Positions 8,781-40,489 of a stretch of DNA of 64,000 bases are shown here, one piece after another (the first letter of the stretch is position 1; each line of letters starts with the position of its first letter). The DNA is taken from positions 186,001 through 250,000 of the forward strand of contig NW_005202303.1 of NCBI RefSeq assembly GCF_000372725.1, read 5' to 3'. A program made the position numbers and the translations under genes. A model generated the notes under the pieces. The model ran no database searches. It was not told the origin of the DNA and was given only the letters and a program-made list of their open reading frames with translations. The stretch comes from Emiliania huxleyi CCMP1516 (taxonomy: Eukaryota).

Positions 8781-11700
8781 ATGGCTGGCGCCCACCAAGG
8801 CGATGCGAGCCAGCTCGCCGCTCGGGTCGCTGCGCTCGAGGAGACGGTGGCAATGCTTGTGGCCAAGCTTTCTGCTGTGCAGCCTGCGCCGCCATCGCCG
8901 CCACCGCCGCCACCGCCGCCACCGCCGCCACCGCCGCCTCCGCCGCCACCGCCGCCACCGCCGCCACCGCCGCCACCGCCGCCGTCCGACCGCCACCCAA
9001 GCGCTCCCGGGCATTCGAGTCGCCAGCCGTCCGACCGCCAGCCAGCGCAGCTGCAGCCCCTGGCGGTGCCGAGCGGGCTCCACTGGCAAGTGGTGCGCTT
9101 CGTCGAGCGGAACGACGCAGAGGTGCTCGCCCAGCAGCCGGCGAGGCACACGGTCGTGGACACCCTCGCGCGCCGACTCGCTTCCGAGTGGCCCTACGCG
9201 CAGCTGGTCTGCTACGGCAGCCGCTGGTGTAGCCTCGCGACTCCTGAGTCGGACATCGACTGCGTCGTGCTCAACCCGCCGCCGCTCGAGGCGGCTCGCC
9301 GCACGCCCAGCCCGAGACGCGCCCGCCTCCTCACCGTCCACGCCACCAAGCGACGCACCTCCGAGGCCCCCGCCAACCAGCCACGCCTCTCACCCGCACA
9401 GCCTCGCCCTGGTCAGCTTCCTGCGGCCATCTACGCGCTGCGCGCAATCTTCGAGCGCGAGGCGGCGGTCGTCGGCAGCGTCGCCATCGCGGGCGCCTCC
9501 GTCCCCATACTCAAGCTCCAGGTCGCCGCCCGCGCAAAGGCGGAGCGGCACGGCGTCACCACACAGCACCGGCGGAGCGGCACGTCACCACTCGTAGGTC
9601 GCCGCCGAGCACGCCGCGAGGGAGCGGCACGGCCGACCGCTGCTGCTGCAGGCGCGCGCGTGTGCAAGATCAAGCCAGACGCCGCCTCTCTGGCCCTCGG
9701 GTCCTGCCTCGAGTCCTCGAGTCCTCGTCTCCTCCTCCTCTCCTCCTCTCAGCCTCTCCTCCTCTCAGCCTCTCCTCCTCTCCTCCTCTCAGCCTCTCCT
9801 CCTCTCCTCCTCTCCTCCTCTCCTCCTCTCCTCCTCTCCTCCTCTCCTCCTCTCCTCCTCTCCTCCTCTCCTCCTCTCCTCCTCTCCTCCTCTCCTCCTC
9901 TCCTCCTCTCCTCCTCTCCTCCTCTCCTCCTCTCCTCCTCTCCTCCTCTCCTCCTCTCCTCCTCTCCTCCTCTCCTCCTCTCCTCCTCTCCTCCTCTCCT
10001 CCTCTCCTCCTCTCCTCCTCTCCTCCTCTCCTCCTCTCCTCGAGTCCCCTTCTCCTCTCCTCCCCTCCTCCCCTCCTCCTCTCCTCCTCCCCTCCTCTTC
10101 TCCTCGAGTCCTCTCCCCCTCGACTGGCCTAATGCGGCCTCCTCCCACCCTCTTCCAACCGACACCCCTCTCCAGTCAGCGCCGCCGCCCCTCCCCGCAG
10201 GTCGACCTCTCTCTCTCGAACGGGCCGGTACACCACGGGCTCACGGCGACGCACATCGCCGCCGGCGAGGTCGAGGCGAGGCCGGCCGTGCGCGCGCTCA
10301 CCGTCGTGCTCAAGGCGCACCTCGCGCACACCGCTCGCGCTTTAATTAACCGATCATTGACATGGAGTTCACTATTAATTAGGCGTACATGGCGCAGCTC
10401 GCGCTCAACCAGACCTACACGGGCGGGCTCGCCTCGCACGTGCTCTTCAATTAATAGCTTTTTGACACGAGTTGGCTTGATCTAGGCGGGCTCTGCTCGC
10501 ACGCGCTCTTCCTCCTCGCCCGCGCCTACATCGTCGCCGCCGGCGTTGGCACCGACGGCTGCGGCTCGGTCGACCTCGGCCGCGCCCTGCTCGGTTTCCT
10601 CGAGTACTACGGCACTGCGTTCGACCCGGCCACGACGCTGGTCAGGTGGGGGTCGGACCCGTTCGCGAGGAGGCCGCCGCTCGCCGCCGCGCGCGGCTAC
10701 CCTCCGCCGCCGCTCTGCGTCGAGGGCGTGGACCCGGGCAGCCGCAACGTTGGCAGCAAGGCCTTCTCCATCTCGAGCTGCCTCGCCGCCTTTCGGCGCG
10801 CGCACGCCTCCCTCCTCTCCGGCGCGTGCCTCGACGAGGTGCTCGGAGCGACGAGCGGTTCCCCTCCTCCGGCGCCGCCGCCGGACCCGATGCACCTCGC
10901 CGCCGCCGCAGCGCTCGCGGGCACGCCGGCGCCGCCCACCGCCGCCGGGCCTGAGCTTACTGCTGCGGGGCCTGGGCTTGCTGCTGCTGGGCCTGAGCCC
11001 GCCGCCGCCGCCGCGCCCGCCCCCACCGCACCCGCTGCCGCCGCCGCACCCGCCGCGCCGGCAGCCGCCGCCGCGCCCGCGGCCGCCGCCGCGCCCATCG
11101 AGGCCGCGCCAGTGTTGCCAGCCGAGGCTGCGCCCGCCGCGCCCCTTCCCGCGCCCCCTTCCGCCGCGCCCCCTCCCGCCCCCCCTCCCACGGAGCCGGC
11201 CGCCGCGGCCGGGGGGTCGAGAGGGGCGGCCGCGCTCGGCTCGGCCGAGTCCGACGCGGCGGAGGCTCCGCGCGAGCCATCCTCGGCGACATCCTCGGCG
11301 AGGGGCGCGAGCTCGAGCGGGCGGAGCTCGGCGGCGAGCGCCGCGGCGACGACGCCGGGCGGCAGGCACGAGGGCGGCAGGCACGAGGGCGGCAGGCAGG
11401 AGGGCGGCAGGCAGGAGGGCGGCAGGCAGGAGGGCAGGCTGCCCAAGGCGGCGCGGGGCAAGGGCGAGGGTCGGCACGAGTGGCCTTGCTCGAAGCGGCA
11501 GGGGCACGCCACCGAGTGGGAGTTGCTGCAGGAGGGGGCGGTGGAGCGGTTGAGGCATGACTTGCTCGAGCAGTCTGGCAGCGTGGCTGCGCTCAAGGGC
11601 TTGGTCGAGAAGCAGCTGCGCGAGCAGCAGGACGTGGCCGCCGTGCTGCAGGCGCACACTCGCGTCATCATGCGCGAGGTCTGCAAGTGGACGCGAGGCT

Positions 11701-11795
11701 ACATCGAGATCCGCCTCTCCGACTTTGCGCTGCCGCCGCTCGCGGCGCGCGACGCCGAGCCGAAGCAGGTGGAGGCGGCGAGCGACGAGACCTGA
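8781..11795 (+). CDS. Non-canonical poly(A) polymerase / TRF4-like nucleotidyltransferase, multi-exon
   Basis: YGSRWCSLATPESDIDCVV (GS...DxD motif), VPILKL|VDLSL, RALTVVLK, YTGGL.SHALFLL, and a PAP-associated segment (LLGFLEYYG...DPGSRNVGSKAF). Introns include 9521-10200. Confidence 0.85.
9722..10105. repeat. Intronic polypyrimidine (ctcctctc)n microsatellite
   Basis: About 380 bp of C/T 8-mer repeat inside the intron 9521-10200. Confidence 0.95.
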
Positions 11796-12180
11796 TTGCG
11801 TGGGCGGCGGGGGGAGGGGGCGATTGGCGCGGCGTTTGATGGATACTGTCCGTTCGACGACTGGCGTGTCTCCCGAGGGAGGTCACTCGTGGAGCACCCG
11901 TCCGCCTGCGACCACACATGGGGCGTTCGTGCGCGCGGTCCCCTCTCTTTTCCCCTCCCTCTCCTTTCTCTTTAGACTTTACACTTATGACTTAACAACT
12001 AACCACTTACGTACACAAGAGAGCTAAAAGCTATACGGCTTCAAACGAAGCTGCCCCCAGCAGGCGTCTTGACGCGTATCAAAATTCTTCCCTACAAAGA
12101 GGCCTACGCGGGACCCGCGAGAAGCTAGATAACAAAGACCGGGCCTTACACAAAGACGGGCTCCCGGGCCGGGGGGCATG

Positions 12181-13359
12181 CTGAGCCCTGGTGTCGAGGT
12201 GTCGAGGCCCGGTGTGGAGGGTGTCGAGCTGCTGTCGAGGGGTAGAGGTGTCGAGGCCTGTCGAGGCCTGTCGAGGCCTGTCGAGGCTGGTACCACGCTT
12301 GTCCGTGTCGAGGGGTGTCGAGGGGTGTCGAGGGTGTCGAGGGTGTCGAGCGTGTCGAGCGTGTCGAGCGGGTGTCGCGAGTGTTGTCAAGGGGTTTTGC
12401 GTCTAAGGTGTCGAGGTGTCCAAGGTGGCAGGATGCAGTTGCAGCCCATCAACAAAACTTGGGCAGCAGTTGCAAAGCTGTTTCATCCCTTATAGTTGCA
12501 GCCTCTCAGTTGCACCCTGTTGATGTAGCACAACCTGAGCACAACCAGTATACTCTCTGTGGACATTTGAGGACATCAAGTGCCGGGAGTCATTGCCACT
12601 GTGCACAAAGGTGCTGTGCAGGCGCAGCACCGCAGCAGCGTCGCCGCTGCAGCGTCATCACCCCTGCAGCGCCACCGGCGCACAAAGCGCAACTGACCAC
12701 AGCGCTCCTTTCACAAGGCTGGTGCCATGAGTCAGTGGACATTGCCACTGCACAAGGTGCTGTCCAGCAGCTAAGGGCTACAGTACCCCATCGCAGCAGC
12801 GTCGCCGCCGCTGCAGCGTCGCCGTTGCAGCCGAGCGTCGCCAGTGCACAAAGCGCAATGGACCACAGGTCTGCACTCATGGCACAAGCTCACTGGTGTG
12901 AGGATTCATTGCCACTGTACAAGGTGCTGTGCAGCACCTGAGGGCTACCTGAGTACTGCCATGTTTGCTACATCAACAGGGGTGCAACTGAGCCGCAACT
13001 TGACCTAGAACTTTTGAGAGGCTGCAACTGAGGAATAAAAGTACTGCCAGCCAAGTATTGCTGCTGCAACCCTGATTTTCTAACTCTGTGACTCCAAATG
13101 GGTCTACGTCTCTGCTGTGTTAGATCATCAGAGGTGTCGAGCGGTGTCGAGCGGTTGTCGAGCGGTGTCGAGCGGTGTCGAGCGGTGTCGAGCGGTGTCG
13201 AGGTGTCGAGTTTGGCACCTTGACACGGACGAGCGTGGTACCAGCCTAGATGGTGTCGAGGGGTGTCGAGGGGTGTCGAGGGTGTCGAGTTGGCATGGGG
13301 TGTCGAGGTGTCGAGTTGGTGTCGAGGTTTGGTGTCGAGGTGTCGAGGCCAGGGCTCAG
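12181..13359. mobile_element. Non-autonomous DNA transposon (MITE-like) with GTGTCGAG subterminal repeats
   Basis: Same TIR ctgagccctgg (12181) / ccagggctcag (ends 13359). 8-bp TSD ggggcatg at 12173-12180 and 13360-13367. Confidence 0.85.
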
Positions 13360-13917
13360 GGGGCATGGTGTGCGAGTATGGGCCAAAAGCGTCGAAAATG
13401 TCCCAAAAAGCGTGTCTCGAGTTTGTTGCAGCCCAACAGCCGGCGCGCGCTGCCAGGAAGCACCGCTCGCGTGTCGGCGGCACTCCCTGGGCCACCCAGT
13501 GAGTGCCGCGAACCGATCAGACCGAACAGGCTCGACGCCGCGCTCGCTGTGGGGCTGCAACAAAGTCGCCGCCGCGTGCCACCGAAGGCGTCCCGTCGGA
13601 GGTGATGGAGTGTGAGACCTGAGGCTGCGGAGGTGACGCCTGAGGTACCGGCCCGTGCACGGCACAGATGGGCGCGCGGTAGGGCCCCTCTCCCCGCGAT
13701 CTACCGCGCGCGCACCCGCCGCCGCCATGCAGCCTTCTCCAGGAGATCCATCGCCGTCTCGCCTCTCTCTTCGGCACCGCAGCGGCCTCACCCCTCTCGT
13801 GATTCGGCTGCTGCCTCTGAGCTCTGTGGCTCCATACCATGGCCAGATGCCCCTCTGTGGGGTTCATTGGGCTATCCGGGCCACCTGCCCTCGCTTTTCC
13901 TCCACTGTGCGTTGGAA

Positions 13918-14650
13918 TGTCAGGGTTACTGCGTAACCCTTCCTAGCGGAGGCGCGCGATTCCGTGACTTTCCGTATACGCACTAAAGTACCCTCACCGA
14001 AGGTGCATAGGAGTGAATCCGAGTGAAACTAGTCCGCTCGATAACGATTGGGGTACGGGCCCTAACTCGTGATAGGCCACTAGTTTCCCGCAGGAGACTC
14101 ACGGAGACCCTCTTCATCTCCTTCCTCCTCAGCCTCTATGTTCTTCACGGATGCTCTCCGTGAATCCAGACATATGTTACACCTTTTACATCTTTCACGG
14201 GCTTTCGGCAAAGTGCCGCTGCTCCTGCTCGCTGCTCTGATGCGTGCGTCTCCCGCCGCGCTTCTCCCCGCTCACCTGGCTCTGACGCTGCTCTTCATCC
14301 TTGGCCGCGCCAGGCTCTCCTACTGCGCCAGCCTTTCAGCTGCGCCAGTTCTGCTTCTCCCCGCCCACCCTATCCTGCCTACTCTTTGGCTTTGGGGTGT
14401 GGCCCTCTCTATCTGGTCTGAGGTGCGATCCCTCACGGCGCCGCGGGCGGCTGCAGGACGTTGAGATTCCCTCCGGACCTGTAGTATACCCAAGCTGTTT
14501 GAGTCCTCCGCCTTCAGTGGCAGGACCCCACGGGGATGTCAGGGATACTGCGTAACCCTTCCTAGCGGAGGCGCGCGATTCCGTGACTCTCCGTTATACG
14601 CACCAATGTACCCTCACCGAAGGTGCATAGGAGTGAATCCGAGTGAAACT
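13918..14650 (+). mobile_element. TRIM/LTR-like remnant: two ~113 bp direct repeats starting with TG
   Basis: tgtcaggg[t/a]tactgcgtaacccttcctagcggagg...gagtgaaact at 13918-14030 and 14537-14650. TGG-starting PBS-like sequence at 14049 and a short purine run before the second repeat. Confidence 0.55.
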
Positions 14651-15489
14651 TAGGGCGGCTTGTTTGTGTCGCATAAAACCACGCTACCACAGACATGACA
14701 GTGGGATCAAGTATAAGCGATGCGGATGATGGCTGCCACCTGTCGTGTTTGAGGAGCATCGCACACGGGTCCAACATCTCAGCGACATGCATGACAACCG
14801 TCGGTGGGAGGAGGTGTGATGTGTCGATTTGGACAGGAGGATGCACCGCCGGTGAGTCAATGACATGTACAGACGGTAAGTGTGGCGAGTTGCGAAGCAA
14901 ACGACTTATGATCCTCCTTTCTGTCCTTGTGATCTCATGCGCGCATACCCCGGTACTCTGTCTCTCCTCCTCTACTCCTAGGATACACTGCTATATTCTG
15001 GTGACCCCTTTCGCTCGCGATGGCTGGGGCCCGGCCCCTTTATTTGAAGCAAATTCCTGATGGATTTGGGTGAATTAGCGAGGGGTTTCGGCAGCCCCGC
15101 TTGGAATGAAATCTTGAGCTACCACGCCAACTCTGAGTGTGCTTCAAAGCAATGGTGCTCACCGCGCTCGACCCCCCCGCCCCGGCCGCCCGCCCCCCGC
15201 CCCCGCCCCCCGCTCCCGCCGCACCCCCCGCCCCCCGCCCGCCCCACCCCCGCCCACCCCACCCCCACCCCACCCCCGCCCCACCCCCGCCCCACCCCCG
15301 CCCAAACCCCGCCCAAACCCCAGCCTCAAGCGCTCGCCAGAGCTGATCCTGATGGCCCGCCCCCCCTCGCGGCACAGGGCGACGGGTGGTGTGGGTATGT
15401 CGGTGTTCTTTGTGCGGGGCGCCTTGTCGTGCCAGTGAGGCAGACCTTCAGCGCGGCACCGATGGGCGCGCGGGCAGGGAGCGTGAGGG

Positions 15490-15910
15490 TCAAGTGAGCG
15501 GAGCGGACCAAGTCATCGAGCCAGCGAGCCAGTGGAGCGGACCAAGTGAGCGGAGCAAGTGAGCGGAGCGGAGCAAGCCAGCGGAGCGGAGCGAGCCAGC
15601 GGAGCGGAGCGAGCCAGCGGAGCGGAGCGAGCCAGCGGAGCGGAGCGAGAGTAGGCTCTGGGCTGTAGAGCCAGCCACCGAGCCAGCGGAGAGAGCCAGC
15701 GGAGCGAGCCAACCGAACAAGCCAACGGAGTGTGCCGAAGAGCGCTTACTGTACGGAGCGGCCCGCGCTGAGCGAGCTGGCGGAGCGGCGAGGCTGGAGC
15801 GAGCGCGGAGCGAGCCAATGGAGCGAGCGGGCGGAGTGAGAATGGAGGAGCACCGTAGGCAACGAAGCGAGCCAACAGGGCTGCAGCGGGGCCAGCCAGT
15901 GGAGCCGCAT
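15490..15910. repeat. GAGCG-based tandem repeat (agcggagcggagcgagcc)n
   Basis: ~18-mer units visible directly. Confidence 0.85.
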
Positions 15911-16053
15911 TGGCGGGCTGATCAGTAGCTGCGCATTCTCAATCTGCCTGCACGAGCAGGATCTTGGAAGGACGATCAGGGACACAACCGGAGCACTTGG
16001 AGGGCATCGATTTTCGTTTGTGGCGAAGCAAATTCTTCTCAACAGGTGCGCCA

Positions 16054-16992
16054 ATGGGCGTGCAGGGCCTGCTCACCCAGGTCCGCTCCTGCGTCCAGCG
16101 CGTGAGCCTCTCCGACTTCAGCGAGCGCACGCTTGCCGTCGACGCGTCGGGGTGGCTACACCGCGGCGCGCTCGTCTGTGCGCACGAACTGCTGCTTGGC
16201 GAGCCTACCGACCAGTACCTTGCCTACCCGCTCCGAATGATCGACCTGTTCGAGCGGCACGGCGTCACGCCGCTCCTCGTCTTTGACGGCGCCTCGCTCC
16301 CGGCCAAGGCGGCCGTGCATCGCGCTCGCTCTGGCGTGCGAGCCGCCGCGCGGGCGCGCGCGGCGGCCGCCGCCATCGAGGCGGATGCAGAGGCTGCGCG
16401 GCGCAAGACGGTAGTTGTGACCGCCGAGATGGCGCGCACGCTCATCGAGGTGCTGCGGGCCCGCGGCCACGCCTTCGTCGTCGCGCCGTACGAGGCGGAC
16501 GCGCAGTGCGCGTTCCTTGTGCGCGAAGGCCACGCGCACGCGGCCGTCTCGGACCCTAGATGTGGGACACGCACTCTTGTGTTCCGAGTAGCACTCGAGA
16601 GGACACGGCATTCGACCGTATTCAGAGCACACGTCGGCGGCATTCGACCGTATTCAGCCGTATCCACGATGCATAGCCCGTGTCCACGCGGTGCTCCGAG
16701 TACACTGCACGATGCCGTCTCCGCACCCCGCCCCGGTGTCTCCACACCGCAGTGTTTACGCCGCTGTGTTTACGCCGCAGTGTTGACACCGCAGGTGACA
16801 GACGACTCGGACCTGGTGGCGTACGGGTGCCCACGCGTGCTCTACAAGCTGCAGGCGAGGGCAGGGGCCTCACCCTCACCCTGCCCCCTACCCCTAAGCC
16901 CACGCGTGTGCTAGCAAGCTGCAGGCCGGCGGCGAGGCGGAGCTGCTTGTGCGGGACGAGCTGCGCTTCGCCGAGGCTGGCGGCAGGAGCAC

Positions 16993-17045
<53 letters not shown>

Positions 17046-17065
17046 CACACACACAATGCGTGCGT

Positions 17066-17104
<39 letters not shown>

Positions 17105-19137
17105 TGCACGCACGCACACACGCACGTCCCTTCCTTGTCAGGCACCTCTTTGACGGCGAGAGGGAGGGGGAGTGGCGCGAGTGGGAGGGCGGGATGCTGC
17201 TCGACATGTGCGTCCTCGCACAGACCCGCTGACATGTCCAGGACACGTCCAGGACAGGTGCAGGACTCGTCGCATAGGTGCATCCTCGCTGGCAGAGACT
17301 ACTCCTCGCCAGCCGCACGCGAAGCTGCATCGCCAGACGGGGGTGAGCTGCAGACTTGCCGGATGGGTAGGCACAGACTACCTGGCTTCCCTCCCGCAGA
17401 TTGGGATCGCCAAGGTGAGACGTAGCCGAGACCGCGGGAGATCTCGCGAGATGTAGCCGCAGTCACCCGGGCCCTCCTCCCCTGATTTCGTCCACTGATT
17501 TCTTCAACCTGTTTTCGTCAAGGCGCACGCGGCGGTCCGGCGCCACCGCAGCCTCGCGGCCGCCGCGCGAGCGATCGCCCGCACGGCGAGGGTGGGGGCG
17601 GCGGAGGCGGGACGCATGAGGAGCCATCGGTCGGTGTTGTTGGCGGCTCCCTCACCCCTCCGGAGATTGGCTCACAGGCGGACGCGTACGTTCGCAAGGC
17701 GCAGCTCGTCCGCCTCGTATTCCGCCACCAGCGCGTGTACGACCCGGCGAGCGGCGGCGTGGTCTCGCTCTCGCCGACCGACGCCCGGGCGGTGCGGGAG
17801 GCCGTCGGCGCTCTCTCCCCAGTCGAACCTGAGGCCGCTCACGATCCATGTCCAATCAACAGCAGAAGAGCCGTGAGCTAGGCGCCTTGGCACCGGGCGA
17901 GCTGGACGACCACATCGGAGCACCGCTGCCGCCGCCGCTCGACCGGCAGGTCTGCAACGACGCGAGCCACAGCCCCGTCACGCGCATGCCGTACGGCCGC
18001 CCCTTCCCGCTCCCCGACATCGCCGCCCAAGGCCGGTGGGCGGCGGCGCAGCAGAGCGCACCGCCGCCGCCGACGCACATACTCGCGTCGCAGCCGCAGC
18101 CGCCGCTTCCGCCGCCGCCACCGCCGCCGCCGCCGCCGCTTCCGCCGCCGCATTTGCTTTCAGCCGCGGCATCTGTTGAGGAGGCGGCGGCGAGTGGCGG
18201 GGCGGGCGGCGGGGAGGAGGGGAGGGGCGGGCCGTCGGCGGCGGGCAACAAACGGCGGCGCGTTGCGTCGGGGCTTGCGGCTGCCTCGCGCCATCCGCCG
18301 CAGACGGGAGGTGGAGGCGGAGGAGGAGGAGGAGCGGGCGAAGGCGGAAGAGGAGAAGGCAGAGGCGGAGGTGGAGGCGGCGGTGGAGGCGGCGGCGGCG
18401 GAGGAGAAGGAGACGGAGCAGAAGGAGGCGGAGGGCTAGCGCGCGAGGCGCAGGCGGCGAGGAGTGCGTGGTGGGCGGCCGCTGAGTTCGCCGCCTCAGC
18501 GGTGGCGGCGACCGCCCTGACGACCGGCGGGGCGGGCGCGCGGGCGGGCGGGGCGGCGGAGGCGGCGGAGGCGGCGGCGGAGCAGGTCGCGCTGCTGCGA
18601 CTGGTGGTGGACGAGTCGTCTCTCTTGAGCGGGCAGCAGCCGGCCGAGTCGGAGTCGGTGTGGCTGCTGCAAGCGGCTCTCTGCCACTGGCTCTACTCGC
18701 GGGACGGATGGCGCGGCGCTTCGCAGCCGCCTCCGTCGCTACTCCGCACCTCGCTGCGGCTGATGCACTTCCTCGGCCCTCTCCTCGCCGCCGCGCCGGC
18801 GGCGGCGGCGCTGCGGCGGACCTTTCAGCGCGCTGTCGAGTGCGGCTGGCGGCAGGTTAATCAACGAATTAATTAATCAACATGTTTAATTGCTTAATTA
18901 GAGTGCGGCTGGCGGTAGGCGCTGCTCGAGCCTCTCCGCAAGCAGCCGCCCGATTGGACGCAGCTCCGCGCCGTGCTGGGCGGGCTACCGCCAGAGGCGG
19001 CGGCGCTGCGCGACGAAGTCAGCCACCTCCTCCCTCGCCGCGGCGCTGCGGGCGGCGGCCGCATCGCAACCCGCACCGCCGCGCCGGTTGCCGCTCGATC
19101 GCGCGCCCTTGTCACCGCGCGCGCCCGCGCCACGTAG
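16054..19137 (+). CDS. EXO1: Exonuclease 1 (XPG/FEN1 family), multi-exon
   Basis: MGVQGLL...LAVDASGWLHRG (XPG-N), LVFDGASLPAK, VAPYEADAQCAFL, TDDSDLVAYGCPRVLYKL, DMC.LAG.DYLASLPQIGIAKA, VFRHQRVYDP. The 3' exons are less certain. Confidence 0.88.
16990..17125. repeat. (GCAC)n microsatellite in an EXO1 intron
   Basis: Visible directly. Confidence 0.95.
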
Positions 19138-22792: not shown

Positions 22793-22795
<3 letters not shown>

Positions 22796-25201: not shown

Positions 25202-28200
25202 TCAAAGCCCGTGGATTTGCTGGAATGCCTTGGAGGTTTTGAGCACCTAAGGAAGAGGTATGGTCACCGTCTCCGCACGTCTCCACACACACAAAGTGGT
25301 GGGCAAGGTGGTGGTGGTGGTGGTGGGGGGGGGGGGAGCACCTCCTCGAGTGCGGGCGGGTAGCCCGGCCCATGCTGCTGCCGCCACGCCTTTAGTAATG
25401 AATCATTCGTGGGTAGTAGTGAATCATTAATGATGACTTGTCGTGCTGCTGCCGCCACGCCTTCGACTCGGCGGAGACGTCGCGCACCTGGTAAGTCACC
25501 CGAGAGGTTAGCCGAGATTAGCCCAGATTACCACCCGGCGGAGTGGCTGCGCGCCTTGTAGATGCGCACCATCTTGTGGCTCGTCGTGTACACCTCCTCG
25601 AAGTGCTGCAGCGGCGCGATCTTCTCGTCGAGCCCCCAGCCGTGAAGCCGGTAGAGCAGCGACTCCTGCTGACAGCCTTCTCTCATTAGGCGGCAGGTTT
25701 CTTCTTTCTGGAGGCGTGCCACCGCCAGAGAGGCTCCTCCATCATTTTGGAGGGGGTCCCGTCCTTGCCCAAGTAGAAGGCCTGCGCGTTGATATCCGGG
25801 TAGACGGAGCCGGCGATCCGCGCCATATGCGGCGACTTTGCGAGGTCGTCCGCAGCCATGCCGTTGTGGCGCGTCGTCCAGAGCAGCACCTACGCGCCGG
25901 TTCTGAGAAGGCTCCGGGAAGGCTCCGACGCGTGGCGCGTCGTCCGGAGCAGCGCACGTAGTCAGCGAGGTGGCGCGTGATCGCGTGCGACGCCTCCTCG
26001 CTCGAGACGAGGCACTTGCCCAGCAAGGCGATGTGCTCGTGGTTCCAAGTGTTGCCGTCGGCGAGAGTCGTGCGGTTGGCGACGCCGCTGATCTGGTACC
26101 TGCGGACGCGTCGCGGCGTCTCGTGGGCGTGTGCGCAAGTGTGTCAGCAAAGGTGTGGATGTGCCAACGGGTGGGAGACAGTGGGGTGTCATGGTGTGGC
26201 GCAGGAAGTGTCTCAGAGGTGTCTCGGAAGTGTCTTGGCACCCGTAGTCCCACCACGCCATCACGCGAGAGTCACGCGGCGTCTCGTCGCGCAACCACCA
26301 ATAGGCCTCGCGAAAGTCGTCGTACACGGAGTACGTCCCGTTGTGGTGCCGCGCCCGCACCATGATGTGCGGCTCCTAAAAGCAGACAGGTCCCGCTTCA
26401 GAGACAGGAATCGCGCAGCCCCTTGCGCCATGATGCACGGTTCCGAGATGCGCCGTGCGATGCTGAACGAATGAGGGACGAAACGAATCGCGCCAAACCC
26501 GACCACCGACAATAGCGCCATGCCCACCGAGCGGCGCAGCGACGCGCTCTCAGTGTACAGCCCCTCGACCTCATCCCACAAAGAAGGGCCGCCGCTCTCG
26601 CCATGCTCCCCGTCGCCGTCCGGGGAGCCGCCACGCCCCGCCGCCGCCGCCGGCGGCGGCGGCGGCGGCGCCTGCTTGCGGCGCCTGCCGCCCGCCTCGA
26701 CCCTCGCCTGCGCATCTAGCCGCGCCTGCGCCTTCTTGCCTAGTGCGGCGCGGCCCTGCTCCTGCTGCGGCTGCGGCTGCGGCTGCTGCTGCGGCGGCTG
26801 CGGCGGCTGCTGCGGCGGCGGGCTGATGGCCCGCGGCTGCTCGGCCTCCTCCTCCTCCCCCTCCACGGGCGGCTGGTCGTCAGCGGTGAGCGCCTTGGGG
26901 GAGGGAGGAGCGGGGAGGGTGGGGCGAGGGCGGGAGGGAGGGAGGGCCGGAGGGAGGGAGGGTGTGGGCGGGCGAGAGGGGCGCCTCGATGTTGAAGGCG
27001 ATGAGGGAGTCGAGGCAGGCGGCGGCGCAGACCGAAGTGGCCGGCGAGATGAGGAGGAGGAGGCGCACCTGACCTCAGGCGATCTCGGGTGATCTCGGGC
27101 CATCTCGGGCCATGTCGGGCCATCTCGCGCCATCTCGCGCCATCTCGGGCCATCTCGCGCCATCTTTGCGGAGAAGTAGAAGCCGACGATCGTGTAGACG
27201 ATGAGGAAGAGCTTCGCGTCTGACTTGCCGAAGAAGGCTGTGCCGAGGCCGAGCGGCATCACAAAGAGGGTGAAGTGGAAGTAGTGCCAGTACAGCATGG
27301 GCGGCGTCGCCTAGCCGAGGTACAGCCGGGGTGCAGCCGAGACACAGCCGAGAGGGCGCCCGTGTGGGTCTGTGGTGGTGTCGCCTGGTGCTCCGCCACC
27401 GAGTCGACGAGCGGGTTGCCCGTCTTGGTGTGCTTGATGAACAGGCTCCGCACGCGCGCAGACATCGGGCCGATGAAGCCCTCCGGAAGGACGACGGCGA
27501 CGGCGACGGCGGCGGCGGCGGCGGCATACCCGAACAGCCGCAGCCGCAGCTTGAGCGTCTCCGTCGAGTCTAGCCGCCGCCTGTCCGCCATCACCTCGGA
27601 CAGCTGCCACAGCTGCAGCGCCGCGAACACCGCCGTCGGGCCGAGCTGCTCGAGCGACTGGAAAGGCTGCCACCCGACCAGGTAGCGGGCCGGCCCAAAC
27701 ACGGCGCCTGCAGGAAAGTTCCGAGACAGCTGCGAGACAGTCCGAGAAGGCTCGTGCCGGGGCGGGAGGAGACGGCGCCGGCTGTGCCGACCAGCCACCA
27801 GAGGGAGTAGGCGCGCCACAGCCGCGCGGAGTAGCGCCCGACCAGCACCAGAGCCGCCGCCTTCGGGTGAGGACTTCGAATGGCGGCGGGCAGAGAGGCG
27901 GTGGCGGTGGCGGTGGCGGTGGCGGTGGCGGTGGCGGTAGCGGCGGGTGTGTGGAGCTGTGAGGTGCGGTGTCATCGTCGGGAGCGACGGAAAGGAGGTG
28001 CCTCTGCGGTGTCTCGCTGCCGTTCGGAAGTGTCTCTTTTCCTCGGCAGTGTCCCCTCAATGCCTCAGCAATGTCTCGGAAGTGTCCCGGGAGTGTCCCG
28101 CACGTGGATGCCAATCATGTTGAGGACGAAGACGTAGCCGCCCCACGCGGCGACCATGTAGCTGTAGCTCACGCCGCAGAGCAGCGCCGCCGGCCACGAG

Positions 28201-29843: not shown

Positions 29844-30619
29844 TTATAAACGGTCTGCCTTGCACGCGTGCAGCCAGTCGACACAGCAGTCCTTGAGGTA
29901 GCGGCGCTGAGTGCAGTCGGCGGCGCAGGAGCAGCTGGACCCGTCTGTAAACTCGATCCGAGCCACTCGCCTGGCTGCGGAGGCGCCGCCGGCGGCGGTA
30001 GCCTGCCGCTGGCTGTCTGACCTCGCCGCCTGCCCCTGCTGTGTCGGCGGCGCGGCTGCGCCTCCCTCGAACTGCAGCGCCATGATGTCCTCGTGGCCGT
30101 AGTGCGTCGCGTGCGGCGGCCAGGCGGCCCGCTGCGCCTCGTCGCTCATCCCGTCGCGCTGCCGGTCGGTCGGCGGTAGCGCGAGGCGGCGGAGCGTCCC
30201 GTTGGCGTGCAGCAGGTCCGCACCGAGGGGCTGCTGGCCGGGCGCGAGAGGCGGGTCGGCGGCCGCGGCGGCGGCGGTGTCGGCAGCGGCGGTGTCGGCA
30301 GCGGCAGCGGCGGTGTCGGCAGCGGCGGCCTCCTCGCCTCCCCGCTCGAGGGCGAGCTTGTACGACATCCACCGGTCCCACTGCTCGAGGAAGGCGACTC
30401 CCTCGGGCCGGTCGAGGTCGACCTGCAAAGGGGCGAGAGCCGCGGTGTGTGACGGCGGGGGAGGCGGGGGAGGCGGGGGAGGCGGGCGGTGGTCTGGCGA
30501 CAGGTCGCGGTGAGTGACCGGAGCGGTGGTGACCACCCCGGCCTGCCGGGGAACCGGCCTGCCCGGGGGATGAGGGTGGCTCGCACGTCGTTTGTGCGTG
30601 AGCGACCAACGGCAGCGAG

Positions 30620-30694
<75 letters not shown>

Positions 30695-32167: not shown

Positions 32168-32503
32168 GGCCGGCTGCCAGCGACCTCGTCCGTCAGGCAG
32201 CCGTCAGGTGTCGCCACTCCAACTCTTGCGCGGGGGCCCGCTCAGGTCGGCGCTGTGGAATAAGCGGGATGTGTAAACCCGGAGAGACGAGAAAAGAGAT
32301 ACAGGGGATGTGCGATATGCGCGCGCGTGTGACACTCCTTGAGCGGCTCGATGTGTCCCCCGGCCGAGGGAAGTGAGCAAGTGACGAGCGGAGGCGAGCT
32401 GCTGCGGCCTCGTGAATGATGAATAATTAATGAAATGAATGCGGCCTCGTGGGCTGGCACGGCCGGTTTAGCCGCGCTTCTCCCGCCCGCGCGCTACTCT
32501 AAC

Positions 32504-33007
32504 GCTGAGCGCGCCGGCACCGGCGGCTCAGCGGCGGAGCGAGGCTGACCAGGCAGCCTCCCCCGCGTCTCCGTCGCCTACTCCGTCTGCGCCAGTGCCA
32601 GGTGCAAGCGGCAATGCGGCAACACGCTCTCATCCCACCTTCTTTTTCTTCACGTACGGATCATGTAGTCCCCAATCGCTGTCGTGGGATCGCTTGTCAT
32701 TTGAGAGAGTGCGTTCCATGCGGTTTCTCTTTTTTAACAATTCTCTTTTCCTCTTGCAGAAGGCATGGCTGCTGCATCGGCGAGCGAGGCGTTCGACGCC
32801 ATCGGGAAGGCGATGCAGGCCGACGCCACGCTCGCCTCAAAGGTCGGCGGAGTGCTCCAGTTCGAGCTCGGCTCTGTATCGTGGACGGTAAGCTGCACCG
32901 GCGAGGGCAGCGTCGCGGAGGGCAGGGCGTCTGCGCCGGACGCCACTATTACCATGAGCGAGCCGGACTTTCTCAAGCTCTACGCTGGCAAATTAACGGC
33001 ACCACGG
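32504..33007 (+). pseudogene. Truncated duplicate of the 5' end of the SCP2 gene
   Basis: Near-identical to ~34967-35355 (MAA(A)SASEAFDAIGKAMQAD...FLKLYAG). Has an extra ~100 bp upstream and breaks off at a retroelement fragment. Confidence 0.85.
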
Positions 33008-33680
33008 TGGTCGACAGCTGTTCTTCACAGCCTTGTTATTGAGAAGAAAATACGTCCCATGGCGCTGTGCGCTGGTCTGTGAGAGGTTGAGGTGCGAGCC
33101 CTGGAGGCCCTGGGAATGGGGGGAGACTACCCGCGGGCCTAGAAGGCCCGCGCGCAGGGGGGTGGGGCATTGAGACCGGTCATGAATGAGTGCGCGACAC
33201 GCATGTTGCGAGCAGCGTTGTTGATGTTTTGCGCGTCGCCACAGACGGCGGCGCGCGAGAGCTGTTGCGAGTGGTGCTGGACAAAGCCCCGGGCGCTGCC
33301 GGAGGCTGTGCCGTAGTCGGTGCGGTCGACGGCGCTCGGGCTGCTGACCTCTTTGGCGAAGTTGTGGATGATTCTCTTGGTTGGCGGCGCGATGCCGCCC
33401 TGGCTTTCGACGAGACAAATTTTGACGATTCCGTTCTCTTGACATGGAGCGCGTCGTAGTACTGTCCCTTGTGCCCTTTGACCCAGCCTTTACCGGTCGC
33501 ATGGACGAGCAGGCCCTGTGACTTGTGGCCGCGCTCTTTGCACCCATGAAGAACCTTGAGCAAGGTTTGGTCGAGGGTGTTGCCGAAACCAAACTTGTGG
33601 CCCAGTGACGCACAGCATCCGCCGTGTGCCGCCGAGCCCTGCCCAGCCTGCCTCGTTTTTGTGTGAGGGCGCTAGGCATA
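33008..33680 (-). mobile_element. CRE-like non-LTR retrotransposon 3' fragment
   Basis: GHKFGFGNTL...LHGCKERG...HATGKGWVKGHKGQYYDALHVKR is homologous to the 8100-8400 fragment. The 3' UTR matches 3055-3285. Confidence 0.6.
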
Positions 33681-35113
33681 AACGCACAACCCCGGGCCCC
33701 GAAATAGCTCAGTGACAGTCAGACACGCAACACGGGGACCCAGGGAAGGCGAGCAAAAATCTTATCGCTCGCGCTCGCTAGACGCCGACTCGGAGGCCGC
33801 ACCGGTCAGGCGCGCAGCCGGAGACAGAGGGAGGCGCTCAATCGCCGAACTCGGCGAGCGCCTCCAGCGTCTCCGCTTCGTACGCACCCTCCTCCCAGCT
33901 GTTCTTCACCTTTCTTGAGCACTTGAGCACTGGATAGGGTCGATTCCGCATGGTACGGGACCCCTCGATCGTCTCGCCCACCCTCACTGGTGTGTTCATT
34001 GGGGGAGGTCATAACAAACACGGTACGGGATCGAGGTGCACGCTGCAGAAGCAGTGTCGTCCCCCCTCTCCCCGACGGCGATGGCGGTGTGACCGATCGA
34101 GCTACAAGAGGAGCTTGTTCATCAGGATCAGAGGTGGGTCGAGCAGTTCTCACTGTTAGACCTAAAGGTCGGCGCCTTTAGGTCTAACACTCACTTCCAC
34201 AATGGGTGAGCTTCAGACCTCGGGCCTGCCTCCCCCTTCACCCTTCGGCTCGTGTGGATTCGAACCACCGCCGGGATGGAAGCTTCGTGCTTCCATCTTG
34301 ATCCTCCATCTGGTTAATTGTCAAAATTCCTGTTGTGCAAGAGGGGAGGGGGCTCTGACGGAGTGTGTGGCGGGAGAGGGCAGGGAATGGGCGCGGGGGA
34401 GGGGGGTGGGGGGGGGCTCAGCCGTGCAAAAAGCATCAATTAATAATTGTAATGAAGAAATATTGCCCGCCCGTCTCGATCTGGAGGAGGCGGGTCAACC
34501 CCGTGAGGACCAGATCAGGTTCACATTGTCGTAGCCGGAGGGGATGTTGACCTTTAGCTCTTGTGGCCACGCTTCTGCTTTGGTTTTTTCCCCACAGACC
34601 ACTCGGACAACTTTTACCAAATGCCAAAGTTAGCACTTTACCATTCGGGCAAATTCGATTGCATTTTACCACTCGGGCAAACTCGATGAAACGGCGGACG
34701 GAAAACGCGTTTGCGGCCGCTCGCCGGAGAGCTATGCATGGAGCGGCCGGCGCGCCGCCGCAGCTCACCGATGGAGCTTGCGCCGCGGCTCAATCCACAG
34801 GCGCAGCAGCACTGCGACGCATTCTCCAAGCACGGCCTCTGGCGTTGCGAGTGCACAGAGAGCGAGCAAAAGTCGACAAAAGCACTGATCTGCGCGCTAC
34901 TCGCTCGTGGCCGCGCCATGCCTCGCCCTCCCCAAGCTGCTGCTGCGAGCCCTGCCTGCCTGCCTCGCTGAGCGCGTCGGCACCAGCGGCTCAGCGGCGG
35001 AGCGAGGGTGACCAGGCAGCCTCTCCCGCGTCTCCGTCGCCTACTCCGTCTCCGCCAGTCATTTGAGAGAGTGAGTGTGCGCGGTGTTTATCTTTTTTCC
35101 TCTTTGCAGAGGC

Positions 35114-36156
35114 ATGGCTGCATCGGCGAGCGAGGCGTTCGACGCCATCGGGAAGGCGATGCAGGCCGACGCCACGCTCGCCTCAAAGGTCGGCGGAGTG
35201 CTCCAGTTCGAGCTCGGCTCTGTATCGTGGACGGTAAGCTGCACCGGCGAGGGCAGCGTCGCGGAGGGCAGGGCGTCTGCGCCGGACGCCACTATTACCA
35301 TGAGCGAGCCGGACTTTCTCAAGCTCTACGCTGGCACGCTCAACGGCACCACGGCGTACATGAGCGGCAAGATGAAGGCGGACGCGCCACGCGCCTCCCG
35401 CCGCCACGCCCTCCCATCTCACCGACGCGCCGCGCCGCCGCAGATCAAGGGCAACATCGGGCTGGCCCAGAAGCTAGCCGGGCTCACGGCAGCAGCCAGA
35501 AAGCGCGGCGCTGCCGCCGCCGCCACGCCGTCCGGCGGTGGCGCGCCTGCAGCCGCTGCCGCCGCCGCCACGCCGTCCGGCGGTGGCGCGCCTGCAGCCG
35601 CTGGCGCCGGCGCGGCGGCAGGCGCAGCGGGGCGCGCGGGCGACGCGATCGTGGGCACCCCGCCCGGCTTCGAGAGCGACGCAGTCTTCGCTCGCATGGC
35701 GGCCAACCTGCGGACGCAGCCCCGGCTGCCCGCCAAGGTGGAGGGGAGCTTCGGCTTCACGGTGACGGGCGGGCCCGGCGGCGCGGTCGCCGAGTGGTGG
35801 GTGGTGGCCAGGAGCGACGCCGCGCCGCGCGTTGCCGTCGGCAAGCCCGCGACCAAGCCGGATTGCCTCGTCACCATTTCGGACGCGCACCTCGTCGCGC
35901 TGGCGGCGGGGAAGCTGAATGGGAGCGCACTGCCAGAGCATGCCAAATCGCCGCCCCGAGCGCCGCCAGCCGCGACGCCCCGCCCCCCGGAGGCTACCAG
36001 CCGGACAGCATTGACGCTCGCGTGGCCAACGAACTCCGTCTCCTTTCTCGCAGGATGAGCGCCTACTTGAGCGGCAAGATGAAGCTGAAGGGCGACATGC
36101 GCCTCGCGCAGAAGCTCGCCGCGTTGATCGGGGCGGGTCCGAGATCGAAGCTGTGA
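35114..36156 (+). CDS. Peroxisomal double SCP2 (sterol carrier protein 2) domain protein
   Basis: Two SCP2 domains (PDATITMSEPDFLKLYAGTLNGTTAYMSGKMK|IKGNIGLAQKL and PDCLVTISD...MSAYLSGKMKLKGDMRLAQKL). C-terminal SKL is a PTS1 signal. Confidence 0.92.
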
Positions 36157-36409
36157 GGTGTCATCTGCGACTGGTTGTTTTCGCCGCGCGTTTTAGCCGC
36201 TTTACGATTTTGCTTTTCCGCGCTTTATTGCGCCGTGAAAAAAACACGGCGCCTGGCTAGTAGTAGTTGTGTAGTTCCCGCGTTTTCAAAGTGCTTTGAG
36301 ACGAAAAAACACCTTTCACCCCTCTACCTGTACTACCCCACTCGTGTGGAGTCCCAACGAGTATCTCTCCTCTCGCCCCGCGCGCCGCGTGCGGTCGCTC
36401 GCCCGTGTG

Positions 36410-39400
36410 TCACCCCTTCACCCGCGCCTTCTCGCCGGTTCCCGTCGCCCCCGCCTCCGGCTCAATCACGGCCGCCAAACTGCGGTCGATCTCCGCCGCA
36501 CGCTCCGCGAGCGGGCGCGCGATCCCGGGCGCGTCCGGCGCGTCTGCGTCCGCCTCGAGGCGCGCCGCGACGCGGCGGAGCAGCAGCGCGCCAAAGCGGC
36601 GCGAGAGGGCTCCGATGGCGGGCAAACGGTGGCGCAGCTTCGAGTGCGGGTCAGAGAGCTCCTCGATGAGCGGGCCTACTCTCGCGGGTCATCTCGGGTC
36701 ATCTCGGGGCGGAGGGCGGCTCGAACGGGGGGCGGCAAGGGGGACCCGCGCTGCTCTGCACACTGGCGAGCGATGGCGGCACCAGCCCCGCCGCATCGCC
36801 CTCCGCCGCCTGCTTCGTTTCGACTCCCTCGCCGCCCGCATCGGAGAGCTTGTCCCAGAGGCTGCCGAACGAGGCGAGCGTCTCGGCGTCGAGGTCGCTG
36901 CGCCGCGCAAGCGCCGGCAGCAGGCGCGTCACCTCGTCGAGGACGGTCGCCTAGTATGACTCACCACCTCATCAATGTTTGAAAGTTGGGTTATTGTCGC
37001 CTCGTCGAGGACAGTCGCCGGCAGCAGCGCCGCCTCGTACAGCGAGCGGAGGGGGCCGGGCAGGGGCAGCGAGCCGACCGTCGAGTCGGCGATCGCCTGC
37101 AGGAAGGTTCCGAGAAGGTTCTCAGAAGGGTCGCAGAGCCAGCCGCCGGGTGTGCGGTCGCCTTTGGCGCACGGAGGGCCTCCGCCACGCGCGACGCCAC
37201 CGCCGAGCTGCCCGCCTGAGAGGAAGAGACCCGAATCGGCTCATGCAAGGCCCGCGGGCAGCGCCGCTGCCGCCGGCCCCGCCTGCGCGATCGTGTCGCG
37301 CACCGCGGCGTCGGCCAGCTTGGCCGCCTCCTCGAGCAGCAGCTCCTGCACGTAGCCGCCGTCCGCCGAGAGGAGCAGATCGACCAGCTCCTCCTGCGCC
37401 GCGTCCGCGCCGCCGCTGGCTGGCGGCGGCGCGGCGGCGGCACCGGGCGGCGGCGCGGCGGGGGCGGCGTCGGCGGGGGCGGGCGAGGCCGCCTTGCCGG
37501 CCGCGGGAGGCGCCGCAGCCTGCGGCACGGCGGCGGTGGCGGAGGAGTAGGAGGTGAATCCGTCGCCCATGGAGAGCACCTTGCTGAGGTTCGGCGTCGC
37601 GTTGGAGGCGTCCTGAGACCAGGTGAGGTGAGGTGAGGTCAAGCTCGCCACACACACAAGGGTGGTGGGGCGAGGGGCGAGGGGCGGGGGGGGGGGGGGG
37701 TGCGTCCTTGTCCTCGGCGCCGTAGACCATCGAGCGGAGTGCGGCCTTTGCGCGCGGCGAGTCGTCGGTGAGCAGGCGCTTGGAGAGGTACGGGAAGGCC
37801 TGAGGTGTCGAGAGGAGGTGTGACGAGCTCGTGTGAGGAGCAGGCGCTTGGAGAGGTGCGGGGAGGCCTCCGAGACGATGGAGTAGTCCTCGTTGGAGGA
37901 GAGGCCGATCCCCTCGAGGGTGGAGAAGGCGCGCGCGACGTAGAGGATGTACGGCGGCACCTGGAAGAGCTCGCGGTTGCGCTGCTGCATCTTCTCCATC
38001 ACATTCTGCACGTCCATCACGCTCGCGCCCTCGACCCCGTCCGCCTCGAGCTGCGTGCGCGCCTGCGCGTAGAACCCCTCGCGCACCTTGGCGCGCAGCT
38101 CCTCCTTGCTGAGCAAGCCGCCGGGGTCGTACTGCTCGCGCCACTCGTCCCGCACGCGCGCCTGCAGCTTCTTGCCTCCCCCGCCTTGCGAGAGCTGCCG
38201 CAAGACGAAGGAAAGGCCCTCGGTCAGGTTGGAGGCTCGCACCCGCTCGAGTTGCTCCGGTGGCGTAAAGCCGAGCCGGACAAAGTCGTCCGGCATAGCG
38301 GCGTAGTCTTCGGCGTTGACGTGCGCGATGAACTCAATCAGAGAGTACTGCAAATCCTGCGGCACGCCCAGCGTCATGCCCCAGTCGAGGATGCAGAGCT
38401 TGCCGTCCGTCGTGCGCAGCAAGTTGCCCGGGTGCGGGTCGCAGTGCAGCACGCCTAGCGAGATCGCCCGAGATGGGTCCGAGATCACCCGTTGCGGCGC
38501 TCGCCCGTGCCGAGCAATCTCGGGCGATCTCGGGCGATCTCGGGCGATCTCGGGTGCGGCACGCCCGTGTCGAGGAGCATCGTCAGGTACGCGTTGATCG
38601 CCACCCCGCAGAGGCGCGGCACGTCGGGCGACGCGTCGAGGTCGAGTCGCGTGCCGTCGACCCACTCTGTGACGAGCACGCGCGAAGAGGAGAGCTCGCG
38701 CACCACGGCGGGCGACGTCACCGCGCCGAGGCCGCGCCGCGCCATCGCCTGCGCAATCAACCAACACAGGCTGAGGAGTGCATCGCGCCGCCGCGCCGAG
38801 GCCGCGCCCGTGCCTCGGCAAACGACTCGGTGTTGTCGGCCTCGTACAGGTAGTCCGTCTCCGCGACAAAGCCGCGGCCCCACTCGTCGACGAGGGCCTA
38901 AGGAGTCCGTTTGATCTGCTACTCCGCCAGAGCCATCATGTCGCGCCCCACTCGTCGGCGAGGGCCTGTGCGGACGCGATGTCCGCGTCGTAGGTCGGCA
39001 GCCTGTTGACGGCGTTGGAGATGCGCGTCTGCAGCGGGGTGAGCAGCCGGAGCAGGTAGAGGTCGAGGCCGATCTCGTCGAGGATGGCGGGCCGCTGGAC
39101 CTTGACCGCCACGGTGCGGCCGTCGTGCAACGTGCCGCGGTAGACCTGGCCGATGGAGGCGGCGGCGAGCGGCTCCGTCGACAGGGAGCGGAAAGTGGAG
39201 GCGAGCGCCTATAGGAAGGTTCGGAGAAGCTTCAGCGAAGCTTCCTCCGTCGACAGGGAGCGGGAATGTCGAAGCGAGCGCCGCGGCGCCGCCGGGCAGG
39301 CCCAGCTCGCTCGCGAGGATCTCCTTGGCCTGCGTCGACGGGAAGGGCGGCACCGCGTCCTGCAGGAGAGTTCAGGGACGCTTAGGGCCCGCCGGTTGAG

Positions 39401-40489
39401 GGACGGTTGCAGCGCGACGGGAAGAGCGGCGTCCTGCAGCTGGCGCAGCTCGAGTGCGTACGCCTCTGGGATGAGGTCGGTGCGGATCGAGAGCGCCTGA
39501 GGGGGGTGAGCTGAGGATGGGGCCAAGCTAGGGCAGTCTAGGAGGGACGGTGCAGGAAGCGTCCAGGAGGAGTGTCTCGGAAGAGTCGGAGAGGCGCCTG
39601 CGCGAGCTTGATGAAGGTAAGTAATTAATCAAGGTAATTATTAATCAAGGAGAGGCGCCTGCGCGAGCTTGATGAAGGTAAATAATTAATCAAGGTAATT
39701 ATTAATCAATTCAGAGGCGCCTGCGCGAGCTTGATGAAGGTAAATAATTAATGAAGGTAATTATTAATCAATTCAGAGGCGCCTGCGCGAGCTTGATGAA
39801 GGTAAATAATTAATGAAGGTAATTATTAATCAATTCAGAGGCGCCTGCGCGAGCTTGATGAAGGTAGGCCCGAGCTGGGTCGCCAGCGCGAGCGCCTCCC
39901 GCCCGCGGTCGGCCTCGTTCGGCCACGGCTCCCCCTCCGGCGAGCCCGCCCGCTTGTACGCCGCGAAGTCGAGCGCGAGCTTGGCGTTGAAGCCGAACGT
40001 CAGCCAGCCGAGCCGAAGGAGGCGCGCCGCAACCTTGGGCAGCCGGGCGCGGTAGAAGCGGTTCGCCGCGGCCGGGTCGTAGCCCTTCGCGTTCGCCGGG
40101 TACGGCGCGCCCAGCGGAGCCTCGAGGTAGTCGCGCACCGCGGTGGCCACGACGACGAGCCCGACGCCCGCCGCCGCGATCGCGGGATTGCTGAGCAGCG
40201 CCGGATTGCTGAGCAGGCCGCCGATGCCGCCCAGCGTCGCCGCGCCGCTCGCAGCGGAGGCCTCGGCGAGCGCAGGGTCCAGGCTGCCGCCCAGCGCGGC
40301 AGCACCGCTCACAGTGGATGCCTCTACGAGGGCGGGATCTAGCGCCGAGCGAGCGGGCGGGTGCCGCACGACGTGCGGGAGGCTGCCGACATGGCGAGTC
40401 GTCCCTAATTGTGCCTGCTGAGTTGACCGCGGCGCGGGAGCAAATGTCGACAGCAGAGGCGTCACTAGTGCCGCGAAGGCCGCCACCAT
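36410..40489 (-). CDS. ABC1K/UbiB atypical kinase, probably plastid-targeted, multi-exon
   Basis: LGPTFIKLAQ|ALSIRTDLIP...LQD, AAASIGQVY, VAVKVQRP, VLVTEWVDG, LHCDPHPGN, ILDWGM, PPYILYVARAFSTLEGIG. N-terminal signal/transit-like peptide. Confidence 0.92.
39591..39866. repeat. 61-62 bp tandem repeat (5 copies) containing the exon end and splice donor of the ABC1K first intron
   Basis: gaggcgcctgcgcgagcttgatgaaggta begins at 39591, 39652, 39714, 39776 and 39838, with AT-rich spacers. Confidence 0.92.

Follow-up and report, generated by a model that had tools for sequence, protein, structure and literature searches.

Exon echoes at the 5′ ends of introns in a 64-kb window of the Emiliania huxleyi genome

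We identified copies of exon sequence (here called echoes) at the ends of introns in a 64,000-nt stretch of DNA from Emiliania huxleyi CCMP1516 (NCBI RefSeq contig NW_005202303.1, positions 186,001 to 250,000; the window); in most of them, the 5′ end of an intron repeats the start of its own downstream exon. Such 5′ echoes, with a score of at least 10, were found in 15 of the 42 introns that we placed, compared with 0.6% of mismatched intron-exon pairs and 0 of 50,000 permutations (the mean score is 8.4, vs. 2.9 for mismatched pairs). The reverse arrangement (the 3′ echo, in which the intron end copies the upstream exon) is strong in 2 of the 42 introns. We firmly regard the echo as the record of a duplicating insertion. 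An earlier note, made from the letters of the window, had suggested that many introns between 10,300 and 39,450 were born by tandem duplication: the duplicated exon sequence and the splicing out of its extra copy are borne out, but the pure duplication of an AG|G segment is not.

Frequency, polarity and composition of the echo introns

The window is GC-rich (56-75% GC), intron-rich eukaryotic DNA with many repeats and gaps of N. Introns were placed by spliced alignment of homologous proteins together with RNA joints, and the 42 belong to four genes: ABC1K (36.5-40.4 kb, minus strand; 12 introns), whose largest exon is 98% identical to an E. huxleyi CCMP1516 model and 90% identical to the ABC1 kinase of Prymnesium parvum; STT3 (25.2-28.8 kb, minus strand; 11 introns) and EXO1 (16.05-19.3 kb, plus strand; 10 introns), both labels being upheld by homologues; and, outside the range of the earlier note, a gene at 61-63 kb that we take to be a PPP-type phosphatase (9 introns). 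An RNA joint backs 13 of the 42 introns (four in ABC1K and nine in EXO1, two of the latter as a single joint around a 14-nt microexon). Left out of the 42 were ABC1K 40209-40271 (in frame, not recovered with P0013, and covered by a gapless RNA piece), the places at which homologues disagree (the STT3 linker at ~26984, EXO1 18100-18590, and phosphatase ~60982-61111), two introns placed by hand (10315 and 10423), and the introns of genes without homologues. Ambiguous donors at 25460, 36745, 62552, and 25739 were retained; for example, 25460 is backed by one of four homologues, and two of the four favour 25442, which would retain 18 duplicated nt. All counts refer to this one 64-kb window and involve no genome-wide data.

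The repeat pairs listed in the earlier note are all present in the sequence where it had put them: 10422/10485 (27 nt, at a spacing of 63 nt), 16845/16915 (27 nt including an indel; 70 nt), 18838/18901 (19 nt; 63 nt), 25373/25444 (20 of 20 positions identical; 71 nt), 36928/36996 (24 nt; 68 nt), 37770/37838 (32 nt; 68 nt), 38877/38945 (23 nt; 68 nt), 39173/39245 (~37 nt with one indel; 72-73 nt), and 10315/10383, which is more decayed than the other named pairs (score 12.5). Over five gene spans, 24 pairs are identical at 17/20 or more positions, and 14 of them are spaced by 60-80 nt; a triplet-shuffle control (20 shuffles) gave 1 pair at this spacing and 4 pairs at any distance; a repeat search over the whole window was dominated by low-complexity families. 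These are exon repeats at introns, as had been claimed, but in most of them it is the 5′ end of the intron that copies the downstream exon, and the AT-rich filler described between the copies is not the rule (AT exceeds 50% in just 4 of the 33 introns listed).

When the seven introns named in that note are removed, the 5′ echo is still found in 10 of 35 introns (0/50,000 permutations), and the 3′ echo signal is gone (12,202/50,000), both of the strong 3′ echoes being among the named introns. The phosphatase gene has a weaker 5′ echo (2 of 9 introns; 425/50,000 permutations). Position by position, the identity of an intron to its own exon is 0.79 at +4, vs. a null of 0.32 (33 introns). The 11 cleanest copies, a sample biased to young cases, are 12-37 nt long; of their 252 paired bases, 20 are mismatched, and several of their indels shift the frame. 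The repeats had been called widespread; they are so in four genes of one window, and the claim reaches no further than that.

The donors of the 42 introns comprise 26 GC, 10 GT, and 6 GA dinucleotides, and the echo is reflected in them. The second base of the donor is the same as the second base of the downstream exon in 31 of 42 introns (4/50,000 permutations), and the downstream exon begins with G in 41 of the 42. Among GC donors, 22 of 26 stand before an exon starting with GC; an exon starting with GA follows three of the six GA donors and none of the 36 others (p = 0.002). This match between donor and exon bases supports the earlier guess that duplication is a source of GC donors, provided that the spliceosome tolerates them. 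A donor mix close to ours was reported for E. huxleyi by Feldmesser et al. (2014), with 56% GC, 40% GT, and 4% GA donors among 241 curated junctions (PMC4028052); the available text of that paper credits the donors to high GC content and makes no mention of an exon echo.

Beyond the echo, the 15 echo introns consist of filler, which has no excess likeness to the upstream exon (score 6.27; null 6.70) and no signal of templating from either the upstream or the downstream flank, in either orientation. The upstream exon, which ends with AG in 23 of all 42 introns, does not do so in 7 of these 15 strong cases, and six of the seven use a TAG acceptor; therefore, the filler supplies or completes the acceptor. 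Since the remainder of the intron is unrelated filler and 7 of 15 cases have no exonic AG, pure AG|G duplication is rejected, and the alternative offered in the earlier note (break repair with inserted sequence) fits better. Fillers are of several kinds, either AT-rich with TAAT/ATTA words or made of 10-11-nt repeats; their autocorrelation peaks at lag 11 and is also raised at lags 10, 20, and 22. For none of 17 fillers did a search of the 64-kb window find exact matches elsewhere above the level of shuffles. All 15 strong cases are 65-79 nt long, compared with 12 of the 27 other introns at 79 nt or below (p = 0.0002), and these totals hold while the echo ranges from 7 to 37 nt; the anticorrelation between echo and filler lengths (r = −0.93) arises partly by construction, because it uses only introns of at most 80 nt. 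We read the constant total, whatever the length of the echo, as a lower limit imposed by splicing, from which introns later lengthened.

RNA and DNA contigs and orthologous loci

RNA contigs skip one copy of the repeat at 16855-16924 (70 nt skipped; runs X11 and X13) and at 18856-18918 (X11, X13, and X15), and RNA joints in ABC1K (X11 and X12) cover 38898-38965, 39209-39281, 38749-38813, and the entire array intron 39497-39844 (348 nt). Retention of the duplicated segments as coding sequence in RNA, named in advance as evidence against intron birth by duplication, did not occur at the sites with RNA joints, and the duplicated peptides are present once each in orthologues. The introns at 25390-25460, 36951-37018, and 37800-37867 are not among the RNA joints listed; the underlying comparison with RNA and DNA contigs was made at 85% likeness, with much spurious match, and 449 joints exist in addition to the 15 considered, such that a joint missing from the list is uninformative for RNA and DNA alike. 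The introns at 10315 and 10423 were outside the RNA contig comparison, and runs X17-X20 (share 0.00) were left out.

DNA contigs of runs X2, X7, and X6 span several introns, and the intron is present each time (that at 18856-18918 has two changes in X6). The six ABC1K introns that fall within the reach of a metagenome contig (L009) are all present there too. Because these contigs carry the same introns, the repeat pairs are not assembly errors. Of 738 intron bases compared between the window and L009, 3 differ, and one of these differences is within an echo, where L009 retains the base of the exon; this low divergence suggests that most echoes are likely to be much older than present within-species variation.

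We compared the 12 ABC1K intron positions with orthologous loci: 19 loci were fetched, and eight distinct, GC-rich, likely genomic loci were used, covering 66 of 96 cells (positions by loci). One position is held in common (aa337, with L007), the intron is absent in the other 65 of 66 cells, and 11 of the 12 positions are absent in every covering locus. Outside these cells are L014 and L015 (duplicates of L013), L005 (a duplicate of L004), L017 and L018 (poor alignment), L001 and L003 (maybe transcripts), and L011, L016, and L019 (AT-rich outgroups). Among distant orthologous loci, these intron positions are nearly all absent. In the haptophyte-like locus L013, 12 introns at positions different from those of the window entered the count, which excluded aa805 and terminal introns of poor alignment; 4 of the 12 have a 5′ echo of at least 10 (1/20,000). 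In six other GC-rich loci, 14 introns have no excess of the 5′ echo (8018/20,000) and an excess of the 3′ echo (1/20,000); the introns of the AT-rich outgroups (n = 6) have neither. Single introns with strong exon copies were also observed in L001 (237-333, 3′-type, score 34) and in L008 (2942-3031, 5′-type, score 14).

Individual introns and duplications outside them

The two hand-placed introns are both on the plus strand. The first (10315-10382; 68 nt, GC..TAG), placed from stops and frame in a gene that presumably encodes a TRF4/PAP-type nucleotidyltransferase, starts with a decayed copy of the downstream exon followed by AT-rich filler; the second (10423-10485; 63 nt, GC..TAG) has a 26-nt copy of the downstream exon (23 positions identical) and AT-rich filler, and its retention gives stops in all frames. 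Both introns with a strong 3′ echo (type A) are in EXO1: that at 16855-16924 (70 nt) has a 27-nt copy of the upstream exon end at its own end, and that at 18856-18918 (63 nt) has AT-rich filler and then an 18-nt copy. EXO1 also has a 14-nt microexon (17278-17291) between two echo introns supported by homologues and RNA, one of 70 nt (17208-17277, GT..TAG) with a 12-nt echo of the microexon, and one of 79 nt (17292-17370, GC..TAG) with an 11-nt echo; the RNA joint is consistent with inclusion of the microexon.

On the minus strand, STT3 contains 25390-25460 (71 nt, GC..AAG), with a perfect 17-nt echo plus three shared bases and AT-rich filler (donor 25460 or 25442), and, placed by homologues, 25488-25554 (67 nt; decayed 22-nt echo), 25890-25957 (68 nt, GT..TAG; 26-nt echo with an indel, the upstream exon ending in TAC), and 26376-26443 (68 nt, GA..TAG; 19-29-nt echo of an exon starting with GA). 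In ABC1K, also on the minus strand, homologues place 36951-37018 (68 nt, GC..TAG; 23-nt echo, the upstream exon ending in CCG), 37097-37161 (65 nt; decayed 26-nt echo and filler of 11-nt repeats), 37216-37282 (67 nt; weak echo, score 10, own p = 0.06), 37613-37706 (94 nt; GA donor, the next exon starting with GA), 37800-37867 (68 nt; 30-nt echo, 28 positions identical), 38455-38564 (110 nt; 11-nt echo and filler of 10-nt repeats), and 39360-39433 (74 nt; GA donor and 22-nt echo with a deletion). Those with RNA joints are 38749-38813 (65 nt; 23-28-nt echo with a deletion), which is the sole position in common with an orthologous locus, 38898-38965 (68 nt; 21-nt echo, 20 positions identical), 39209-39281 (73 nt, GC..TAG; 37-nt echo with a 1-nt indel), and the array intron 39497-39844, in which four 62-nt units (exon end, donor, and AT-rich filler) are followed by a 100-nt remainder; this array at an existing donor has six units in L009. 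The first ABC1K exon contains an in-frame 60-nt tandem duplication (40245-40345; 29 of 41 positions identical) covered by a gapless RNA contig.

In the phosphatase gene (plus strand), homologues place introns with decayed echoes at 61482-61555 (18 nt) and 62552-62624 (16 nt; the donor is 62552, 62555, or 62563 depending on the homologue). By sequence comparison, the intron at 62694-62857 contains internally a copy of the two exon ends that flank it, linked to each other as they would be in a gene without the intron, and is likely to represent two stacked events. Internal cassettes of ~70-79 nt (a copy of the exon start, filler, and AG) are found at 62694-62857 and 62904-63019, and in L013 at 4655-5033 and 5178-5310; an old acceptor adjoining a new GT in one L013 intron is a possible recursive-splicing site.

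Duplication with AT-rich filler is also seen away from recognised coding exons, at 54673 and at 32398-32450; the latter is a 12-nt duplication with AG at neither end of the filler. Repeats scoring at least 12 flank 11 of 21 TAAT/ATTA clusters, non-coding clusters included, vs. 8.6% of random places; four of these 11 form one array and two form a duplicated segment. This suggests that duplication plus filler is a general mutational process filtered by splicing.

Other features of the window include two elements (5614-6615 and 12181-13359) that share an 11-nt terminal inverted repeat and have differing arrays of 9-10-nt subterminal repeats, and are likely to be non-autonomous DNA transposons. 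A gene at 35.1-36.2 kb, which we take to be SCP2-like, has a probable GA donor at 35923 ahead of an exon starting with GA, and RNA contigs of two runs end at 35924; its 5′ part (34970-35340) is copied upstream at 32500-33000, where the copy is cut off beside a high-copy repeat. Near-identical 2-kb segments at ~53000-55040 and 57880-60010, the first degrading at its end, lie beside N gaps and are a likely assembly duplication, and a homopolymer-rich, garbled stretch within a coding region (47100-47345) appears to be of low quality.

Origin of the echo introns

Our preferred explanation, to which we give about even chances, is that the echo introns were born in one step by repair of staggered breaks, with duplication of the target, insertion of 25-60 nt of filler, and splicing as the filter. 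Repair of a staggered DNA break would duplicate 12-37 nt of the target and add unrelated filler, and such events may strike anywhere, including outside coding exons and inside older introns. Survivors in coding exons would be those in which the first two bases of the copy (G followed by T, C, or A) serve as the donor, an AG is provided or completed by the filler, and the combined length of copy and filler is just above the minimum spliceable length of ~63-68 nt. The donor would then be the start of the next exon, in GC-rich coding DNA most often GC; with age, the copy would decay and short tandem repeats would lengthen the intron. A spliceosome tolerant of GC and GA donors would be a precondition of this process, not its result. 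Our guess is that the filler is synthesised by iterative slippage of the end-joining type.

A comparable case is that of Daphnia pulex, in which direct repeats of 4-12 bp, present in 33 of 90 new polymorphic introns, were ascribed to staggered breaks (Li et al., 2014; PMC4202315), and there too an exon terminus is directly repeated at the intron's opposite end. Compared with what the available part of that paper describes, the echoes here are longer (12-37 nt in the 11 cleanest cases, shorter repeats being indistinguishable from the consensus), are biased to the 5′ end, occur in 15 of 42 introns, and have no absence allele seen.

Several observations weigh against staggered-break repair as the general explanation. 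Three of the four genes were picked by the earlier note for their repeats, and a strong echo is lacking in 27 of the 42 introns. Non-AG exon ends are not significantly linked to TAG acceptors (11/19 vs. 6/23; p = 0.059), some fillers share 19-33 nt with those of another gene (two being anchored at the 3′ AG), and no intronless allele was seen in X2, X7, X6, or L009 over the introns spanned. The locus sample consists of distant loci, with no genomic DNA of a close sister taxon, and a quick tree places them loosely. In L013, a common 10-nt unit occurs 44 times in sense and once in antisense orientation, the same terminal 10-mer is found in 7 of the 12 introns, and two internal cassettes (74 and 79 nt; aa249 and aa297) resemble pure tandem duplication across an existing acceptor; the shared 3′ ends are equally compatible with a mobile 3′ cassette or with strong selection on splicing.

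It is possible, though on balance doubtful, that a mobile filler cassette carries the acceptor and takes its donor from a long and variable target-site duplication (TSD); for example, a short RNA (possibly the 3′ tail of an intron) may be copied in by target-primed reverse transcription. Variable duplications on the order of 12-37 nt are typical of non-LTR (non-long terminal repeat) insertion, and both the strong 5′/3′ polarity (15 vs. 2) and the shared 3′ ends (19 nt common to 37161 and 27778, and the 7 of 12 in L013) favour such a cassette. The geometry is that of a published introner class, ‘co-opt 5′, carry 3′’ (PMC9860276), and one of three small E. huxleyi families is so classed, with ‘10bp terminal direct repeats’ (PMC12130899, supplement 8). 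As in the introners described in the available parts of these papers, including those that take their donor from a TSD of 3-9 bp (Gozashti et al., 2022; PMC9860276), one splice site is co-opted from the duplication and the other is carried, GC and GA donors occur, and excision is seamless (PMC9860276, PMC12130899). Unlike those multi-copy families, the echoes here are variable and 7-37 nt long, and the filler is mostly unique in the window; within the window, introns share just 19-33 nt, and those of L013 have units and 3′ ends in common. Fillers in the window are mostly unlike one another and have no exact copies above chance, AT-rich fillers occur in either geometry and also outside exons without AG, no poly(A) tail was seen, and the families listed (56 elements in 2025, or 653 in 2022) are few for about one third of the examined introns.

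We consider it improbable that the echo is secondary, formed by duplication across an existing acceptor with later loss of the old 5′ part, such that old introns were replaced. Nested cassettes do exist (aa249 and aa297 in L013; 62694-62857 and 62904-63019 in the window), replacement would account for the polarity and for an AG exactly at the boundary, and the one shared position (aa337, L007) has an echo in the window; but none of the covering loci has an intron at 11 of the 12 ABC1K positions, and a precise second deletion would be required at 15 of 42 introns. Very unlikely is the Rogers model, a pure tandem duplication of ~68 nt of exon across AG|G whose 3′ half was then rewritten by selection. 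The tandem duplication route to introns has been reviewed (PMC3443670) and shown in principle (Hellsten et al., 2011; PMC3265369), and, as in these accounts so far as available, the introns here contain a copy of the neighbouring exon that is spliced out and leaves the protein unchanged; 23 of 42 upstream exons end with AG, and two type A introns and the in-frame coding duplication of 60 nt (~40245/40305) point the same way. Unlike products of that route, the introns are exon-derived only in part, the exon is often not the source of their acceptor, and the filler does not resemble the upstream exon, not even next to an echo that is ~90% intact; together with the 7 of 15 strong cases that have no exonic AG, this largely refutes pure tandem duplication for the 15 tested introns. 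Chance similarity in GC-rich DNA or an assembly artefact, which a repeat-rich window of 56-75% GC that has N gaps and probably an assembly duplication might lead one to expect, has a negligible probability and is already refuted for the tested sites by the permutation and shuffle controls, the same introns in independent contigs, and the RNA joints.

Among the titles and abstract openings returned by our literature searches, none describes an exon echo in haptophytes, and a prior description is possible. What stands out in this variant of known ways of gaining introns is the frequency, length, and polarity of the echo and its tie to GC and GA donors. In practice, junctions in gene models are displaced or masked by echoes: P0004, the matching protein model, is without residues at two such junctions. 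The echo also offers an explanation, open to test, for the GC-AG and GA-AG junctions long noted in E. huxleyi. More tentatively, one recurring process, in which the start of the future downstream exon is duplicated and acceptor-bearing filler is added up to a minimum length, may have made most introns of E. huxleyi and many in other haptophytes; it would set the majority of GC and GA donors beyond the effect of GC content, and its repetition at existing acceptors would build back-to-back, recursively spliced introns. About one third of the examined introns bear what would be a long, datable birth scar; a genome so marked would let the birth, decay, and lengthening of introns be measured by the thousands.

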